Positions 9,464 through 37,565 are shown, counted from the whole stretch's first letter. The stretch is DNA of 52,939 nt, filler included, from Ionaspis alba (GCA_964255285.1; 2 parts of 2 records of this genome joined end to end with filler, not necessarily neighbours in it); one strand, 5' to 3'. The notes: generated by a model from the letters alone, not told the origin. Program-made: numbers and translations.

Positions 9464-10369
9464 TTACATGAACCCGCAGTTGCCGGTTGCGCCAGTGGCA
9501 GATCCAAGCGTGGCCTTGCCGCTGCCACCGGCACGGTTGCTTGTGTTGGTAGCAGTGGTATAGACATTGCGATAGGTAAAGTCCAAGACGGGGGTGCAGG
9601 TACGCGATGCTTTCTTCTTTTGCGAAGTAGCACCGTCCCCTGCCAAACCGTTGGTGGTGACATTGTTGCGAGCTGTCTCAACGTCAGATGGGTGAGCGTT
9701 GTGCAGTCAGGGCTGTAGACTTACCTCCCCCGGTCAAGTGAGAGTCCTGATGAGTTGAAGAACCACCCGAAAACTTAGGGTTTCCAGCCTTGGTGGAGGA
9801 CGCCGAGCCAACGCCACCGGAATTTGTTAGGGTTTCGCTTCCAGATCCTGCAGCACGCTGAACATGGGAAAGGTTGGTAGATCCGGCTTTCGTCATTTCG
9901 TTGCCAGCCCACTGAGTGTCTGCGCCACCCTTGGGCCCGATCATACCGTAGCGTTTGGTGGCGTTGTAGTACTTGGTCTGGCCAACATCTACGGTCGCAG
10001 TGAGCGTGCTGGTGGTGATGCCAGGAACTTGATGGCCACGACGCTCGGCGATAGTCTTGTCGACAGCATTGTGGACTGGCTGGGCAGTCTTGGCGGGTTT
10101 CTCAATATAGGTCGAAGAAGAACTGGTCGANNNNNNNNNNNNNNNNNNNNNNNNNNNNNNNNNNNNNNNNNNNNNNNNNNNNNNNNNNNNNNNNNNNNNN
10201 NNNNNNNNNNNNNNNNNNNNNNNNNNNNNNCTGGCTGGGCAGTCTTGGCGGGTTTCTCAATATAGGTCGAAGAAGAACTGGTCGAATACGGAGAAGGGGT
10301 GCTGCGGGCAGTTGACGACGGGGAAGGAGTTTTGCGTTGAGCAGACGCGGGAATGTTGGATTGAGGCAT
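9464..10369 (-). CDS. Ser/Thr/Gly-rich hypothetical protein (~232 aa after collapsing the gap) ending in CaaX-like CGFM
   Basis: ATG 10369 in a CAACAAGATG context. Removing the 100 N and the 55-nt duplicate gives an open frame to intron 9673-9724 (GTAAGT..CTGAC..CAG); exon 2 runs to TAA at 9464. A probable 5'-UTR intron lies at 10454-10528 (GTAAGT..GCTGAT..CAG). Confidence 0.7.
10076..10285. other. Assembly gap (100 N) flanked by an identical 55-nt duplicate, probably an unmerged contig overlap
   Basis: 10076-10130 is identical to 10231-10285, with N at 10131-10230. Collapsing the two copies restores the reading frame. Confidence 0.85.
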
Positions 10370-26424: not shown

Positions 26425-26524
26425 NNNNNNNNNNNNNNNNNNNNNNNNNNNNNNNNNNNNNNNNNNNNTTAATTAATTAANNNNNNNNNNNNNNNNNNNN
26501 NNNNNNNNNNNNNNNNNNNNNNNN
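26425..26524. other. Artificial 100-nt contig linker N44-TTAATTAATTAA-N44
   Basis: TTAATTAATTAA (stops in all six frames) at 26469-26480 embedded in N runs; it truncates the PFA3 ORF. Confidence 0.95.
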
Positions 26525-30573: not shown

Positions 30574-32562
30574 ATGGCAGACCCGGAAAATCCACTGATT
30601 AAGGCTCTCCCACCAGAAATCGACTACATCTCCTATCTGACCATCGTCGAATACAATCTCACCGAAGAGCAGCTACCGCTCCTTCACAGCATCCTCCGAG
30701 ACAACCCAACTCTAACCACTAACATTGGATGGGATCTCGTTCATCTTCTCGTTCCATTTCTCCCTGCTTCGAGAGAATGCCTCGAGGATGTGGCTCAGCT
30801 AGGAAACCCCAGGGAGGTGATCCTCAAGGTCACAGAGGCACTTGAAATCATAAGGAGTCAAAAGTCTGATGAAGACGATGATCAGAGCTTTGTCTCTTCG
30901 TCTGGCGAAGCGAACGAGGACGAGGAAGCCCCTTCCCTTGAACCTCACGCTGTGGAAGATGGAGAAGCCAACGAAGGAAAGCAGACCGCAAACACTCTGC
31001 TCATCAAGTTTGAAGTCCTTTTGCAAATGCTATCTACTCTACACCAACGTATCAAGACTGCATATCCCAGCCGGTTTCTGTCAACATCTCTGCAAGCCAT
31101 CATTCCTGCTTACGCTAAAGTGGCACATCTCTCTTCCGCCATAGAGAGCCTAATCTCATTTGTCAAGAGCGTGGTGGGTCCAAAGAAACCTCCACTCCCA
31201 CCTCGCAATGGCGGATCAGTGCAACACACTGCGAATGATGCTTCTCGTGCAGCTCCAGACCCAGAAGCTTGTCTGGAAGATCTGTCACCAGAAGAAGCAA
31301 AGCTTCAGGATCGGCTCATTTGCTCTTTCATCACTCATGTCGTAGAGAGATATATCGACTCGATCCCTGCAATGGAAGATGTCCCAGGCTTGGCATGGAC
31401 TTCTCGGTTTCAGGAGAAGCGTTGTCCTGAGAAGCTTATACCCCATCGCCAAACGATGGAGGCTATGTTCGCAGATAATGATGAGCTCAAGCGTCGAGAT
31501 GAAATGGTTCTGCAAATCTCGGGATTTGTATCAATATCGCTATCTAACCAAATCGAGGATTTAAATTGGATCTTGACACATTCCGATATCGACCTTGAAG
31601 GTTCCGATATCCTGGAACATTCTGATGTATTTGCAACGGACCTCCCGCCTTCCCGTATTGGTCTGCTATACATTTTGGCGAACGATCTCTATGCTGGCGG
31701 CTCGCTCACCAAGAATTCATTTCGCAAGCCCGTCAAAAACTCTGTGAAGACGCATGCCAGTATGATGAGATCCTACATCGACGATGCCAATGTGGGCAGC
31801 GCAGGTACAGAGAGACAGGCTGTCATTGATGCACTTCTTCTCTTTGGATTCATGTCCTTGCAAGAGATCTATCCTGACACATTTGCTAGCGAGGAAGAAT
31901 TCTTCGAATACTTGCAGCGCTTGTGTCTCCTCTCGGCGAACACACCATCGCCTAGCCTTCGATATCATGCTCACGTTCTTGTCTCTACTATTCTCCACGC
32001 GCATCCTAGCGAGCAGACTCGATATACTTTTATCAAAGATACGCTCGAGCACTGTCCTTTTGAGAACCTCAAAGTTAGTGCTGTTGGTTGGTTCAAAGAG
32101 GAACTTCTTGCTGCCGGTAGGACTGAAAGCCAGACCGAAGACAAGGACCAAACTGCAGAGACTCCAAGCAGCAAAGAGCCTATTAGTCAGCAAGGAAGCA
32201 ATTTCTTCCTTGATCTCGACACGCTCAGTTCCCTGTGCCCCTTTCTATTCCCGTCCATCGAATCCGCCGCAGAAGATCTGACGGTCCTTCAGATGCAGTT
32301 GCCTTTCTACCTGGCAGTATTGAACCTCTACTACCTTATGTGCTCGTCGCCACTGCTGCTCGAAAGGCTTGAGATTTCGAAACTGGAAAAGCACTACGAT
32401 GTTGTCAATCATTTCATCAATCCACTAGCTGAGCTCGCGTCTAAGTTTAGACGACAAGCGGAAACGGGAGATCGATTAGTCAGTGACTCGGCAGAAGTTC
32501 TCACGGACCTGCAACTTCTTGAGGTCATTATTGAACAGGTCCGGCAAGCGCGACAAAGTTGA
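30574..32562 (+). CDS. YAP-binding/ALF4/glomulin family protein (Ybp1/2-like, DUF1760)
   Basis: 662-aa ORF with LTTNIGWDLVHLL, AQLGNPREVILKV, RIKTAYPSRFLSTSLQAI and LEHCPFENLKVSAVGWFKEE. Confidence 0.8.
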   Translation: MADPENPLIKALPPEIDYISYLTIVEYNLTEEQLPLLHSILRDNPTLTTNIGWDLVHLLVPFLPASRECLEDVAQLGNPREVILKVTEALEIIRSQKSDEDDDQSFVSSSGEANEDEEAPSLEPHAVEDGEANEGKQTANTLLIKFEVLLQMLSTLHQRIKTAYPSRFLSTSLQAIIPAYAKVAHLSSAIESLISFVKSVVGPKKPPLPPRNGGSVQHTANDASRAAPDPEACLEDLSPEEAKLQDRLICSFITHVVERYIDSIPAMEDVPGLAWTSRFQEKRCPEKLIPHRQTMEAMFADNDELKRRDEMVLQISGFVSISLSNQIEDLNWILTHSDIDLEGSDILEHSDVFATDLPPSRIGLLYILANDLYAGGSLTKNSFRKPVKNSVKTHASMMRSYIDDANVGSAGTERQAVIDALLLFGFMSLQEIYPDTFASEEEFFEYLQRLCLLSANTPSPSLRYHAHVLVSTILHAHPSEQTRYTFIKDTLEHCPFENLKVSAVGWFKEELLAAGRTESQTEDKDQTAETPSSKEPISQQGSNFFLDLDTLSSLCPFLFPSIESAAEDLTVLQMQLPFYLAVLNLYYLMCSSPLLLERLEISKLEKHYDVVNHFINPLAELASKFRRQAETGDRLVSDSAEVLTDLQLLEVIIEQVRQARQS

Positions 32563-33246
32563 AAGAGTAGAACTTGGTCTTTGCTCCTGTACATGCATAC
32601 TTCGCACCATATGGTGCAAAATCAGGTCAACCATTTGACCACTCGTCCTAGTTTCACTCCAGATTACAATACCAGAGGAGCATGTCACTATGCCTCATTT
32701 CGATGTTGTGAGCTATGACATATCACAAATCAACAGCAATCACTTCCTTCGAAAACTACCATGTGTTCAACAAGCGTTTTGCATCTAACTACAAACCGTC
32801 ACGCAGGCTAGCTAGACCCACGCAACACCCGCTTGGAACTCATCTTTCGCAGCAGGAGATCTCCCACCCAACGCCATAACACCCAAAAAGCATACATAAT
32901 CCAAAGAAGAAAAAAACAGAGAAAATATCAGACAAAGAGCCCAATGCCATCACACCCACCCCCATCTCACAAGATCCCAGACCCGAAAGGGCACAGTCTC
33001 CGAAAGAACGAGAGCAAGTCGAGGCCGGCTAGTAACAAAAACAGGAATTCCCATACAGAGTCAGACAAAAGAGAGAAATGGACCCATTACAATCCACGAT
33101 CCTAGGATTCAACAGCGGCCGGTTCTCAACACCTGGGGATCATTGCTGACTCCAGGTACCAAGCACCATCGCCTGTGGGTCCCCGCGGCTCAATAGTGCA
33201 CGGGTGGTGGATCGAGGACGTCAAGGGTGTGTGGTGCTGGCGCCAT

Positions 33247-33330
33247 TTACATGACGGTGCAGCCGGAGCCGGGGATGCCTCTGTAGCCGTTGGCGGCGGT
33301 GGGGGTGGGAACGTTGCTTGATGGAGACAT
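33247..33330 (-). CDS. a-factor-type (CaaX, lipopeptide) mating pheromone precursor, 27 aa
   Basis: ATG 33330 in a strong AACCAACCATG context. Translation MSPSSNVPTPTAANGYRGIPGSGCTVM*: S/T/P-rich pro-region, Asn before the putative mature peptide, CaaX box CTVM. It has its own TATA box and 5'-UTR intron and sits alone in a 2-kb intergenic gap next to PLD. Confidence 0.85.
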   Translation of the reverse strand: MSPSSNVPTPTAANGYRGIPGSGCTVM

Positions 33331-33360
33331 GGTTGGTTTTGGGATTGGTAGTCTGGAGAC

Positions 33361-33412
33361 CTGTTGGTGGGGTGGGTTAGCTGGGTGTGGGAGGTGAAGG
33401 GTGGGGACGTAC
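33361..33412 (-). other. 5'-UTR intron of the pheromone precursor gene
   Basis: Donor GTACGT at 33412, branch GCTAAC at 33376-33381, acceptor CAG ending at 33361, 30 nt upstream of the ATG. Confidence 0.75.
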
Positions 33413-33486
33413 TGTTGGTAACGAAAGTGTTTGAAGTAAGAGAATGATTTTTGGTGAGGAGTGGAGGGTTGGTGGTGGGGAGGCAG

Positions 33487-33676
33487 TTTTATACTGTCCG
33501 CATGTTAGTTGGGGTGAGGATGAGGAGAGGCTTGTTTCGGACTTCTAGGACTTCGGAGATCGTGAGCGTGTCTTTGTTCTGGAAGGACGACATTTGAGGA
33601 GCTAGGGTTGCTTGATATTGTGCTTTGCTTAATATTGTTCCCGAAGTGTCAAAGAATTGGTCGTGCTCAACAAAGA
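33487..33676 (-). promoter_or_regulatory. Pheromone promoter: TATAAAA plus HMG-box (TR-box-like) sites
   Basis: TATAAAA on the minus strand at 33487-33493. Plus-strand TCTTTGTT at 33571-33578, ATTGTT at 33634-33639, TCAAAG at 33649-33654 and AACAAAGA at 33669-33676. Confidence 0.6.
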
Positions 33677-34603
33677 TGCAAATCAGGTTGTGGGAGTGCT
33701 AGATCTCCGGGATTGGTACTGTGGCATCATAGCGTGGGATCTGGTCATTGGTGTCAATGGTTTGGAGTGAATGCGTTAGTTGCCGTTTTCCGGCCCTTCA
33801 CATCTGATCATCAAGTCTTTACTGTCGATTCAGAGTGGTCAATTGCGGAAAGCGCTCCGACATATCGGAGAGACTATAGTTGTCGATTCATCGACACCAT
33901 AGGCTGAATAATCGACTCTGAAGTCCACTTCTGTGGCCACACTGCTAAAGGAGCCCCCAACCGTTGCCAGCCTTGAAGGGATCTTTCTCCATTCACGTAT
34001 CAGTAATATCTCCGGTCCTCGTGCAGACATGTAATTATGGGTCCACGGCTTTTGATTTTGATACATCTCAGTGCTGAAAGGAACGATGCCTGGACTTGAT
34101 TTATTTCTCCTGCTTCTGCCTTCACGACATTTTATGACTAATGGAGGTGGTGGGTCAAAACACGATGTACTTCTAAGTCTTGCCAATAATGTCTCCGCAT
34201 TTCGTGCACAAATTAGGAGACACAGGCAGAAGAGATCTACATTGAGCTGAGACACAACGCAGAAGACAACGGCAAGCTAGACATCGGGAGGCTGGTGGCC
34301 CCCCTCCGCCAAAACCTCCTCATGAACGGGAAAGGAGAAATGTTCATTGTCGTTCATGCTCGACATGCGATTTTCACTTTCAAACAAGCTGGTTTGCAAG
34401 CCAGTTGATTAGTAGCTGGGTCATTGAAAGATCATGCCTCCTCAGAATGAGTTGCATGTAGTAATGCCAAGCCCAAAGAAATCCAGCTAGCCGGATCTCG
34501 CCATAAACCCTTAGTATTGTTCTTCTTATCTTGCCTTTGTCGCTAAGCACGGTGCCAGGCTTTCTATGTATCTAGAGCTCGAGCAGTTCTCTACCATTCT
34601 CGC

Positions 34604-37565
34604 TCAGGTGTACACTTCCTCCGTAAACGCGTTCAGACTCAAGCCCTCCTTCGCAATGTCTTCCTTGATCAAGAACAGAAGTGGCATCTCCACCAAGTTA
34701 CCTTTGACCGTACTAAGCAGGTCCTTGACCGCTCTCACACCCTGTTCTCCTGGCGGGAACTGATCCGCAACGACGTGACCCCATTTGTACCTCGGAGGCT
34801 TCTTAACACCACCCTTGTCAGGCTCCTTATCGCCGTGGAAGAAGCACTCGTAGAAGGAGTCGTAGTCGCTCCAAGTCTGGACCGCATCGTGCGGTACTGG
34901 GTGGAAAACTCGTCCAAAGGCCTCCGTATTTTGTCTGGCTACGCCATTCCAGAAATTGAGGAACCCGTCTGATAAGGGATCGATCACAGCTCGATCCTCC
35001 GCAGACCCGTAGTCGTAGACGTTAGGGACACCAATAGGCTCGAAGTTCTGATTCGCCCGCTCGATATCCTGTGCCGGAAGAAGGCCGATGTGCTTGCGGA
35101 AGATCTGCCGTCGAAGTGTCGCTGCGAACTTCGACGCCCGCCACGGTTGACCATTCATGCTTGAGTCGAGCGGGGCGGGATCTTCAATGATAATGGCAAT
35201 CTCGGAGTCGTGATAACCCAATTGAGATCGATCATTCAGATTTGCTGAGCCACAAATGACCACACGATCATCTGCAATTAGAACCTTGGAGTGCACATAG
35301 AGCTCTTCACTAACGAAGGCGTCGATTTCAGGCACGTTGCCGCTCTCCCAAGGCACGTTCCGGATGTCCGTCCCTCCAAGCATATAGCACTCGCTCACGC
35401 TGTCCCAGCGACTATTGCCGAGTCCACCGCGATCGTCTATATTACTCGCAGCTTGCTGGTAGCGCTGATAATTCTGACCAGACGACGACTCGTTCGCATA
35501 TCCAGCCCCACCCTGTGCGCGATAGCCCATAGGATCAACCATAGCATCATGCTCTCGCCTGGCAAGCTCATAGTCCACTCCGCTCAGCTTTTCAGCTTCG
35601 CGCATTGCTGCACTGACATTGATTCGGTCATAGCTTCGTAAATTATAAAACCGTATGTATTCCATAGGATTGAATCCCGCATTGGCAATCGTTTCCATGA
35701 TACTATGGCCCCCACGGTTGATTGAGTTGTACTGGAACTCCATAATTGCTCGTGTACCCAGACTCGACTCGTCTTTGAGGTCGCCTGCAAATGCAGGGAT
35801 CGCTGGCATCACAACGATGACTTTGTACTTCTCCCCTGCTCGTGCAGCTCGCAGGATACGATCGGCGATCGCGCCACCGATCTTGTTCTTGATCGGTTTC
35901 TGTGCGTCTGAGGTGGCAGTAATGAAGAATTGGTTTTCAATATACACGAAATGCTGGCTCCTTTGGATGACATCGATGTATGCATTAGCGATTGAGTGCT
36001 CTGTGGGTATACCATGACTCCATTTACTGCTGCTGCGAGCAATCTGACAACGGATACCCGCTCGCGGATCCGATGAGTAGCTTCGTTGCACCGTTGGTTG
36101 CGGAGTTCCGCCATGGAACCTAGCGCTACCACCAAGATACTGGTCTTCGACATGATGCATACGACTTTCGAAGCGCTCGCGAGCTTCTTCTTCGAAACGA
36201 TGCATAGAATGCAGCTGTTCCGCTTGAGGTTGCTCGTGCATGGTCGTGGTGAGCCTCGAATACCTGGCGTCATGCCTGACATTATACTTCTCGTCGTAGA
36301 TGAAATTCCATCTCTCGACAAAGTGGGCCTTGAGATCTTCCAGAACGGGCCCTGATAAGCTTAGAGAAATGTCCGACCATCCCATTCGTGAACTTTCCTT
36401 CCGATCAAGCTTGTTATTCTCCCAGTGGTCGACGTCCGCAAAATCCATTATCCTGGCATTGTTGAAGTCTTGGCCAGGGAAGACAATTCTACCGAGATCG
36501 CTGGGATGAGCATCTGCAATAGAATGTTGATTGGTATCCCAGCGTCCATAGCACAAATCTAATCCACCCATGAACCCGATCCTCCCATCCACAACGCACA
36601 ACTTTTCATGATGCGCCCAATACAAAATAACGCCCTCATTCATGCCGTACAGTGCTTTGAGTGTGTCTCCAGGTAGTTTGGAGGCAGTCGCCGCGGTCAA
36701 AGAAAGATTTTGCAGGGAAGAGAGAAGAGAACTTTCCACTGTCTGAGCATCTGGAAGATGGTCGGGATGACGGAAGACACATATGTTTTGATGAAGATCC
36801 TCAAGAGCATGTTTGGTGTGGTTCGAGTTGACTGTCAAAGGCGGAGAAATCAGCGGATTCTCGGCCTCTACATATTCGAGTGATTTGAAGGTGACAGCGA
36901 GCCCCAGCCGAGTAAGTGCAGATGTTACTGAGTCCGTTGCATGCGGCAGTAGAGAATGTAGGTATTTGGGAATCGTCGGAGATAAGTACTTACGGGTGAG
37001 AGCTTGAGCGACTTCCTTGTAGACAATGATATTTACCTTGACACCGCGTTGAGCTGCCGCGAGTAGCATACGGTCTACACGGTATTGCTCGTTCTTTGAT
37101 GGTGGTCTTCGAAGATAGAGCTCGGGGGAGAGCCACCCTACTTGATCAGCCAGTAGTCACACATAATTTCGTGGACGACCAACAATCAAGGATCCAGATG
37201 GACTCTCTGGCCTGCTCGAGAGCTCGAGACACAGCCCACATGTAGCCACAGCCATCAACAAACCATTTGACATCATTCCCGTCTCTTTCGGCGGCAAAGC
37301 TATCATACCGATGTGGAGAGTCGTGTGTACCATCAGAACATTGACCTGCATGGGTATGACTATGTTTCTCGCCGGCTAAGCGGCTTGTAACCTCTGTTCC
37401 AATGCCATGGACTGTCTCGTGGACCTTGTTGAAGACGGAGGAGAAAAGAGAACCAGAACCACCACTTCCGTCGCCACGAAGCTTTTTGAAAGTATCTCCG
37501 ATTAATCCTCGTTCCCCGCCTTCTGGAGGGACATCTCCGTAGGCAAGGTAGTCCTCGTTAGCCAT
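34604..37565 (-). CDS. Phospholipase D (two HKD motifs, no PX/PH domains)
   Basis: Introns 37138-37183 and probably 36832-36993. Motifs ESIWILDWWLSPELYLRRPP, WAHHEKLCVVDG..GGLDLCYGRWDT, YIENQFFI and YVHSKVLIADD..GSANLNDRSQLG. Confidence 0.95.

Follow-up and report, generated by a model that had tools for sequence, protein, structure and literature searches.

The leader of the a-factor precursor of S. cerevisiae is removed in two cuts, at T7/A8 and then at N21/Y22 (accessible part of PMC2134810), and the precursor of S. bayanus begins with MQP (MQPITTVSAAPKDKTSTEKKDN-YIIKGVFWDPACIIV; PMC10569646 file S2). The same file gives MPSTAASTKVPQTTMNFNGYCVVM for N. crassa and S. macrospora (N. crassa pattern MPST...NFNGYCVVM), MPSTKPTSSQKPGYPLSCTVM with the end ...PGYPLSCTVM for G. 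zeae, and the units RGVDQSSGCSVM and KNGGGHSGCSIM for the repeat-type precursors of Huntiella and Verticillium, respectively. In Sordariomycetes, cyanase and EBP2 are the flanking neighbours of the a-factor locus (PMC8661429, accessible part), and according to Wilson et al. 2023 (PMC10569646) no a-factor gene was known in filamentous ascomycetes outside this class before their work. Srikant et al. (bioRxiv 10.1101/2021.09.28.462209), in the accessible part of the preprint, filter candidates by a CaaX stop, a length of <100 aa, an Asn 5 to 20 residues before the Cys, and conservation that is strongest in the mature part. Two lichen genome papers, in the portions available, mention only receptors or alpha-type genes.

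Here, we describe an 84-nt ORF on the minus strand of the window (i.e., the whole stretch of DNA that was analysed, 52,939 nucleotides) that is likely a real, unannotated gene encoding the precursor of a lipopeptide pheromone of the a-factor type (a-class), in a fungus probably among the Lecanoromycetes. This mini-gene, its parts, and its neighbours are as follows:

30574 to 32562, plus strand: Ybp2/Alf4/glomulin-family gene (Pfam PF08568, E 4.8e-111), convergent with the mini-gene
33247 to 33330, minus strand: CDS, which by translation encodes the 27-aa precursor MSPSSNVPTPTAANGYRGIPGSGCTVM and stops at TAA; this copy has no CDS intron
33250 to 33261, minus strand: CaaX box C24-T25-V26-M27, with predicted farnesylation, -TVM removal and carboxymethylation (chemistry by analogy with yeast a-factor, accessible part of PMC2134810)
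33259 to 33288, minus strand: candidate mature peptide in the long reading, GYRGIPGSGC (G15-C24; putative cut after N14)
33259 to 33279, minus strand: candidate mature peptide in the short reading, GIPGSGC (G18-C24; putative cut after R17)
34604 to 37069, minus strand: PLD-domain gene (Pfam PLDc/PLDc_2), co-oriented with the mini-gene and upstream of it, with conserved linkage

Translation from 33330 to 33247 confirmed the ORF, and the details listed for it in the earlier note were all recovered: it has a strong start context (AAAACCAACC-ATG-T, A at -3), a bias for C-ending codons (C at 20 of 27 third positions versus 4 of 27 first positions), CTVM immediately before the stop codon, an N14-G15-Y16 motif, and Ybp/ALF4 and PLD genes as neighbours, seen as Pfam matches at the positions given above. 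In the genes adjoining the mini-gene, C occupies 27% to 42% of third positions. The window contains N runs at 10131-10230, 26425-26468, and 26481-26524 (188 bases in total), none of them close to the mini-gene.

The window Ybp2 protein was used to place the host lineage and to find related loci. Its database search gave 986 matches at E <= 0.001 among 7999 candidates scored, with 120 listed; among the matches listed, the closest three are 50% to 51% identical and the best named ones, from Lecanoromycetes and Dothideomycetes, 43%. In a maximum-likelihood tree built from 51 Ybp2 proteins, the window and the three relatives closest to it cluster with Trapelia, Lambiella, and Xylographa (SH-aLRT 99); this midpoint-rooted tree comes from a quick search, uses a single fast-evolving protein, and samples no Eurotiomycetes, Sordariomycetes, or Leotiomycetes. 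The window fungus probably belongs among the Lecanoromycetes (Ostropomycetidae) and probably forms lichens. Metagenome contigs were scanned with an alignment of 22 Ybp2 relatives, which matched 225 stretches, 166 of them encoding a relative; the best 80 of these 166 (L001 to L080; 900,124 nt in total) were taken as loci for comparison.

Strict CaaX frames, defined as C[TVISAL][VILM][MLASQ] before a stop, occur 63 times in these 80 loci. The 21 frames that end in C[TVS]VM form a single family at a shared genomic position and all stop with TAA, while none of the other 42 strict frames has a VM ending. The check proposed in the earlier note, a search of the Ybp/ALF4-PLD interval in relatives for a short CaaX ORF, thus came out positive in 21 of the best 80 of 166 loci, where the mini-gene lies in this interval or adjoins PLD (L006-8, L014, L016-18, L021, L022, L025, L026, L028, L041, L047, L050, L053, L069, L072, L074, L076, and L079). 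A PLD gene was found in 19 of all 80 loci, and 17 of these carry the mini-gene downstream on the same strand; in the two exceptions, L023 and L024, PLD is truncated by the end of the locus. In four more loci, the mini-gene lies on contigs too short to reach PLD. Since Ybp2 is inverted relative to the PLD/mini-gene pair in L006-8, the conserved linkage is that of PLD to the mini-gene. Including the window, there are 11 distinct precursor sequences from about eight lineages, and several loci from one accession series repeat the same species.

Judged by the closest named Ybp2 protein, L053 resembles Pleopsidium (79%), and ten loci are Letharia-like (65% to 71%; L001, 3, 4, 5, 9, 12, 13, 15, 21, and 27), among which L021 carries the mini-gene; the L014 and L041 groups fall into a clade adjoining the Lecanoromycetidae in the Ybp2 tree. 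Eight Letharia-like loci (L001, L003, L005, L009, L012, L013, L015, and L027) lack both PLD and the mini-gene out to 8 kb from Ybp2, and a loose scan of the Ybp2 neighbourhood in these eight found no mini-gene frame; Ybp2-PLD synteny is broken in this lineage (Lecanoromycetidae). The strict scan likewise found no mini-gene in the Ybp2 neighbourhood of the remaining loci among the best 80 of 166, including Aureobasidium-like ones. L072 (11038-11178, minus strand) and L074/L076/L079 (13611-13814, minus strand) retain the order Ybp2, mini-gene, PLD, and they come from distant fungi with Ybp2 proteins only 32% to 44% identical to everything named. By its sequence, the mini-gene family extends to these loci and hence well past the group of the window itself. 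A protein-database search with the unspliced L006 ORF (P0122, 55 aa) gave no candidate with three words in common, and a HMMER scan of 1.84 billion representatives gave a sole match, to the intron-encoded proline-rich part (P0124), and no annotated relative; these blanks weigh little, because short spliced genes are seldom called.

Unlike the window copy with its uninterrupted CDS, 19 of the 21 homologues fit a two-exon model with a phase-1 intron of 66 to 153 nt that has a CTAAC-type branch site and a CAG acceptor. Exon 1 of these relatives runs from the ATG to a GTAAGT, GTACGT, or GTATGT donor, and the intron sits 10 codons before the stop, or 13 in L041/47/50. The deduced precursors of the relatives are given here as exon 1 / exon 2:

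L014 group: MQPATPITTAAPTEVPQPQEAR / GQPGYGCTVM
L025, L028: MQPTAPITT... / GQPGYGCTVM
L021: MQPAIATTTVAVAPAEVKVPQEAR / GQPGYGCTVM
L006; L007, L008: MPSTTNPTT(A/S)AAPQELPQTSDSR / GQTGYGCTVM
L053: MSPITNAAPQEIPQTVDAR / GQVGYSCTVM
L041, L047; L050: MPAQSQ(I/V)PKTVEVSAAN / AEAHPGWSACSVM
L074, L076, L079: MSPSEIAQSAAVVK / VSPGGGCTVM
L072, closely similar to L074/L076/L079: MSPAQIQNSAVVK / ASPGAGCVVM

With 27 aa in the window and 23 to 34 aa after splicing in the homologues, all precursors stay below the 100-aa limit used for a-factors. They start with MQP, MPS, MSP, or MPA, continue with a leader rich in S, T, A, and P (with [TS]AAP in several), and end in a short Gly-rich core with a single Cys. 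The two loci that do not fit the two-exon model belong to a species-level cluster of nine near-identical copies: in L016 (10657-10860, minus strand), the ATG of the eight sister copies is replaced by GTG, and L018 (10651-10855, minus strand) has GC in place of the GT splice donor. The GTG may mark a dead allele or an assembly error, and either change may reflect a null or variant allele carried by natural populations or, alternatively, faulty assembly.

Conservation within the family follows the exons. Across eight pairwise comparisons, identity is 75% to 100% in exon 2 and 64% to 99% in exon 1 versus 44% to 63% in the intron and 48% to 71% in the 200-nt flanks, with the exception of the near-identical L014/L025 pair (intron 97%, flanks 82% to 86%) and the upstream flank of L006/L007 (100%). 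Exon 2 contains synonymous differences in Gly, Thr, Val, and Ser codons (GGC/GGT, ACC/ACG, GTC/GTT/GTG, and TCG/TCT). Furthermore, the 12 minus-strand ORFs of at least 40 aa in 33331-34700 (two of which extend slightly past the ends) have no tblastn match in the loci, and this lack of conserved coding sequence between PLD and the mini-gene implies that the CaaX exon is not the tail of a larger protein. Together, the stronger conservation of exons than of introns and flanks, the synonymous differences, and the missing match to a larger protein indicate that the mini-gene is protein-coding and under purifying selection, with the last ten codons most constrained. That it is real and conserved is, in our judgement, close to certain.

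The sequences on both sides of the CDS add predicted transcript and promoter features:

33206 to 33246, minus strand: 3'UTR block of ~40 nt immediately 3' of the stop, conserved with L006, L007, and L053
33331 to 33360, minus strand: 5'UTR segment 3' of the UTR intron, conserved at the DNA level with L006/L007/L053
33361 to 33412, minus strand: predicted 52-nt 5'UTR intron, GTACGT(33412)...GCTAAC...CAG(33361), from splice-signal sequence
33487 to 33493, minus strand: TATAAAA box, 163 nt upstream of the ATG
33533 to 33539: Ste12-PRE-like CGAAACA, a motif match and suggestive only
33572 to 33578, minus strand: AACAAAG, HMG-box-type site, a motif match and suggestive only
33669 to 33675: second AACAAAG copy (CTTTGTT), a motif match and suggestive only

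A blastn block across the UTR and first codons connects the window to L006/L007/L053 at 76% to 78% identity, and an equivalent 5'UTR intron lies at the same place in L006, L007, and L053 (acceptor 29 to 32 nt before the ATG). At the other end, identity between the window and L006, L007, and L053 is 81% to 87% over the final 26 nt of coding sequence and ~40 nt of 3'UTR. The block TAAATGGCGCC.GC.CCA...CGTCCTCGATCC in this 3'UTR is present in the window, L006 (5447-5490), L007 (4983-5026), and L053 (10185-10229), though not in L014 or L021, and it may serve to regulate or localise the mini-gene transcript. TATA-like boxes are found at -128 to -195 in L006/7, L041, L050, L072, and L074. L006/7 and L053 have CATTGTCCGC..CCAGC(A/T)TAAATAC at the TATA-like box in common, ~195 to 170 nt upstream of the ATG, and GCGGAC (the reverse-complement hexamer) precedes the window TATAAAA at a matching distance (~33494-33510); this likeness may reflect a promoter element in common, or chance.

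HMG-domain MAT proteins regulate pheromone genes. Both AACAAAG sites of the window, as well as CGAAACA, sit upstream of its TATA box, and AACAAAG occurs upstream of the mini-gene in 4 of 8 lineages (window, L006/7, L053, and L074) versus a background of 0.085 per 450 nt of loci; these motif matches are no more than a hint of HMG-type regulation. A freshwater metatranscriptome (X1) yielded a 249-nt contig that matches 32766-33011, in the gap separating the stops of Ybp2 and the mini-gene, at ~98% (5 mismatches, 1 indel), with the strand unknown and DNA carry-over possible. A very close relative of the window fungus seems to be present in that sample. Run X2 contains the window in full and is probably where its sequence comes from. 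Run X3 yielded three identical low-depth pieces, none over the ORF, and since the X1 contig lies outside the ORF as well, both bear neither way on its expression.

Likeness of the family to known a-factors was judged on short motifs compared by eye with PMC10569646 file S2, not by statistical alignment. On this basis, the precursors of Sordariomycetes (N. crassa mfa-1, P. anserina, S. macrospora, and G. zeae) come close to the window family in length (21 to 27 aa), in their MPST or MSPS start with an S/T/P-rich leader, and in a single Cys within a CaaX box ending in VM (CTVM also in G. zeae), and several have GY near the Cys. The two groups differ in the core, which is Gly-rich G-x-P-G-x-G-C in the window family, and in genomic setting, with cyanase and EBP2 (PMC8661429, accessible part) on one side and PLD and Ybp2 on the other. 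Similarities to the Saccharomycetaceae concern the leader, since the L014 and L021 precursors start with MQP followed by T-rich residues and AAP like MQPITTVSAAPKDK of S. bayanus. The window leader MSPSSNVPTPTAAN resembles both the MPST and the MQP leaders of published a-factors (PMC10569646 file S2); it is polar and has no hydrophobic stretch, so that on inspection there is no signal peptide, as in Saccharomyces MFA1/MFA2, which are CaaX-ended like the window precursor. However, the CaaX box is of the CVIA type in yeast and CTVM in the window, and while mature yeast a-factor has 12 mostly hydrophobic or aromatic residues, the putative mature part in the window is unusually short with 7 to 10 residues rich in Gly, Pro, and Ser. 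Compared with the filters of Srikant et al. (accessible part of bioRxiv 10.1101/2021.09.28.462209), the window precursor shows all four features, including the Asn, and the family as a whole three of the four.

Two other kinds of precursor resemble the window peptide in part. The repeat-type (h-type) precursors of Huntiella, Verticillium, and Trichoderma (HPP1) are built from units of a basic residue, ~8 residues, and C-x-V/I-M, similar to R-GIPGSG-CTVM of the window, and the Huntiella unit RGVDQSSGCSVM parallels the window end RGIPGSGCTVM. Yet these precursors have 2 to 5 tandem CaaX units whereas the window and all 21 homologues have one, and we rejected a repeat-type identity because of this single CaaX. 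The putative a-factor of Leotiomycetes (B. cinerea BCIN_13g03330 family; PMC10569646) is usually unannotated like the window gene and also has a mostly CTVM end, an S/T-rich N-terminus, and a GY motif, but it is 45 to 64 aa long with a Cys-rich tail (C.EC...CCC...PC-TVM; ...CLECDGYECCCIPIPCTVM), unlike the window family with one Cys in 23 to 34 aa. File S10 of PMC10569646 contains 93 CTVM ends, 0 GCTVM, and 0 GYGC. Membership of the window precursor (27 aa, one Cys) in this family was rejected. The Cys-rich Leotiomycete candidate resembles neither the classical a-factors nor the PLD-linked family.

The NGY motif, which the earlier note expected to recur in relatives, is present in the window as stated above, but it is not conserved: the relatives have GY before a Cys-proximal Gly or Ser (GYGC, GYSC) or no GY at all. 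An Asn 5 to 20 residues before the Cys is found in the window (N14, 10 residues to Cys24), L041/47/50, and L072, and is borderline in L053, but it is missing in 4 of 7 other lineages (L006-8, the L014 group, L021, and L074/76/79). The Asn at which yeast a-factor is cut is thus not a family-wide site, which counts against the a-factor reading. In the lineages without it, Arg or Lys occupies the exon junction itself. GYRGIPGSGC, proposed before as the mature peptide, is for these reasons only one of two readings. The long reading N/GYRGIPGSGC fits the N-X rule (Srikant et al., accessible part) and has a parallel in AAN/AEAHPGWSAC of L041/47/50, while the short reading R/GIPGSGC aligns with R/GQPGYGC, R/GQTGYGC, and R/GQVGYSC at the exon junction; as judged from these alignments, it is uncertain whether the mature peptide would be GYRGIPGSGC or GIPGSGC.

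In a CaaX box, Met as X directs farnesyl transfer. By analogy with yeast a-factor, we infer that the mini-gene product would be farnesylated and function as a pheromone acting on Ste3. The window precursor would stay in the cytosol without a signal peptide, Cys24 would be farnesylated (X = Met), -TVM would then be removed, and the Cys would be carboxymethylated. The S/T/P-rich leader would be cut off, possibly first at T/A (PTPT/AAN) and next after N14 or R17; the candidate sites T11/A12 and N14/G15 of the window compare with T7/A8 and N21/Y22 of yeast a-factor (PMC2134810, accessible part). The resulting 7- or 10-residue Gly-rich farnesyl-peptide methyl ester would leave the cell through a Ste6-type ABC transporter, and the partner would perceive it with a Ste3/PRE-1-type receptor.

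How far other explanations account for these observations depends largely on the homologous loci. Viewed in isolation, the window ORF is not above chance because Cxxx ends are common (40 of 1036 short window ORFs with M start and 12 to 80 aa, nested starts counted) and a few of these 40 resemble prenylation boxes; with 46% C in the 200 nt upstream, it could be a spurious frame in C-rich intergenic DNA that ends in a CaaX box by coincidence. What lifts it above chance is its conservation in other fungi: the 21 homologous copies at the same locus, the frame kept across introns of differing length, and exons far more conserved than introns contradict a chance ORF, which we rejected and regard as barely conceivable. 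Slightly less remote, but still very improbable, is a reading in which the conserved element either encodes no peptide, acting instead as a regulatory element or lncRNA for PLD or Ybp2, or supplies the final exon of a longer CaaX protein. Conserved UTR blocks adjoining the CDS and the metatranscriptome contig of unknown strand in the Ybp2-ORF interval would agree with this, whereas conservation that tracks the frame (ATG with MxP, phase-1 junctions, synonymous changes, and TAA in all copies), the 12 upstream ORFs without tblastn matches, and a TATA box of the mini-gene's own speak against it. A CaaX protein of the Ras, Rho, or G-gamma type that ends in this exon was rejected specifically, given no conserved coding sequence upstream of the mini-gene.

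A more serious though still unlikely alternative is a conserved prenylated micro-peptide that serves mainly for something other than mate recognition, e.g., as an autocrine or density signal, as a developmental signal also used vegetatively, or as a membrane-anchored micropeptide. The family is conserved and CaaX-ended and nothing here ties the mini-gene to mating type, but to our knowledge there is no other class of 23- to 34-aa CaaX peptides with such leaders. A precedent for a role of this kind is found in F. oxysporum, where a-pheromone and Ste3 take part in autocrine control of spore germination according to the accessible part of a review (PMC13308352). Nevertheless, every structural feature of the mini-gene product fits a-class pheromone precursors in the by-eye comparison with PMC10569646 file S2, and 4 of 8 lineages have HMG-type sites upstream of the mini-gene.

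The a-factor interpretation proposed in the earlier note, which remains the likely one, is thus upheld by the syntenic CaaX family, the exon-selective conservation, and the a-factor-like leader, but its expectation of a conserved N-G-Y was not borne out. Our search of openly available full texts found no report of the mini-gene family, of its C-terminal strings, or of an a-factor-like gene of a lichen fungus. Most likely, the family is of the a-factor kind known elsewhere and new for Lecanoromycetes, with an earlier report possible. More tentatively, and with the odds against it, the PLD-linked two-exon CaaX mini-gene could be a true orthologue of the yeast and Sordariomycete a-factor genes that has been retained across several classes of Pezizomycotina. 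If so, the MQP/[TS]AAP leader would link the family to Saccharomycotina, and L072 and L074/76/79 would extend it past Lecanoromycetes. PLD synteny, the phase-1 intron, and G-x-G-C-T-V-M would then be a search handle for the Lecanoromycete a-factor that has been missing for decades, and the same handle might serve in Eurotiomycetes and Dothideomycetes. The Cys-rich Leotiomycete candidate would, under true orthology, be something else, and the mature pheromone, as a 7-residue farnesyl-heptapeptide, would be among the shortest known.

Lichen fungi grow slowly and we know of no routine laboratory crosses of them, which is why their mating biology has been inferred almost wholly from MAT loci. A pheromone candidate makes the sexual signalling of these fungi testable without crosses, and the mini-gene family offers a marker for the loss of sex in asexual lineages. 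The recipe of PLD synteny, intron, and CTVM could be applied to hundreds of published genomes.
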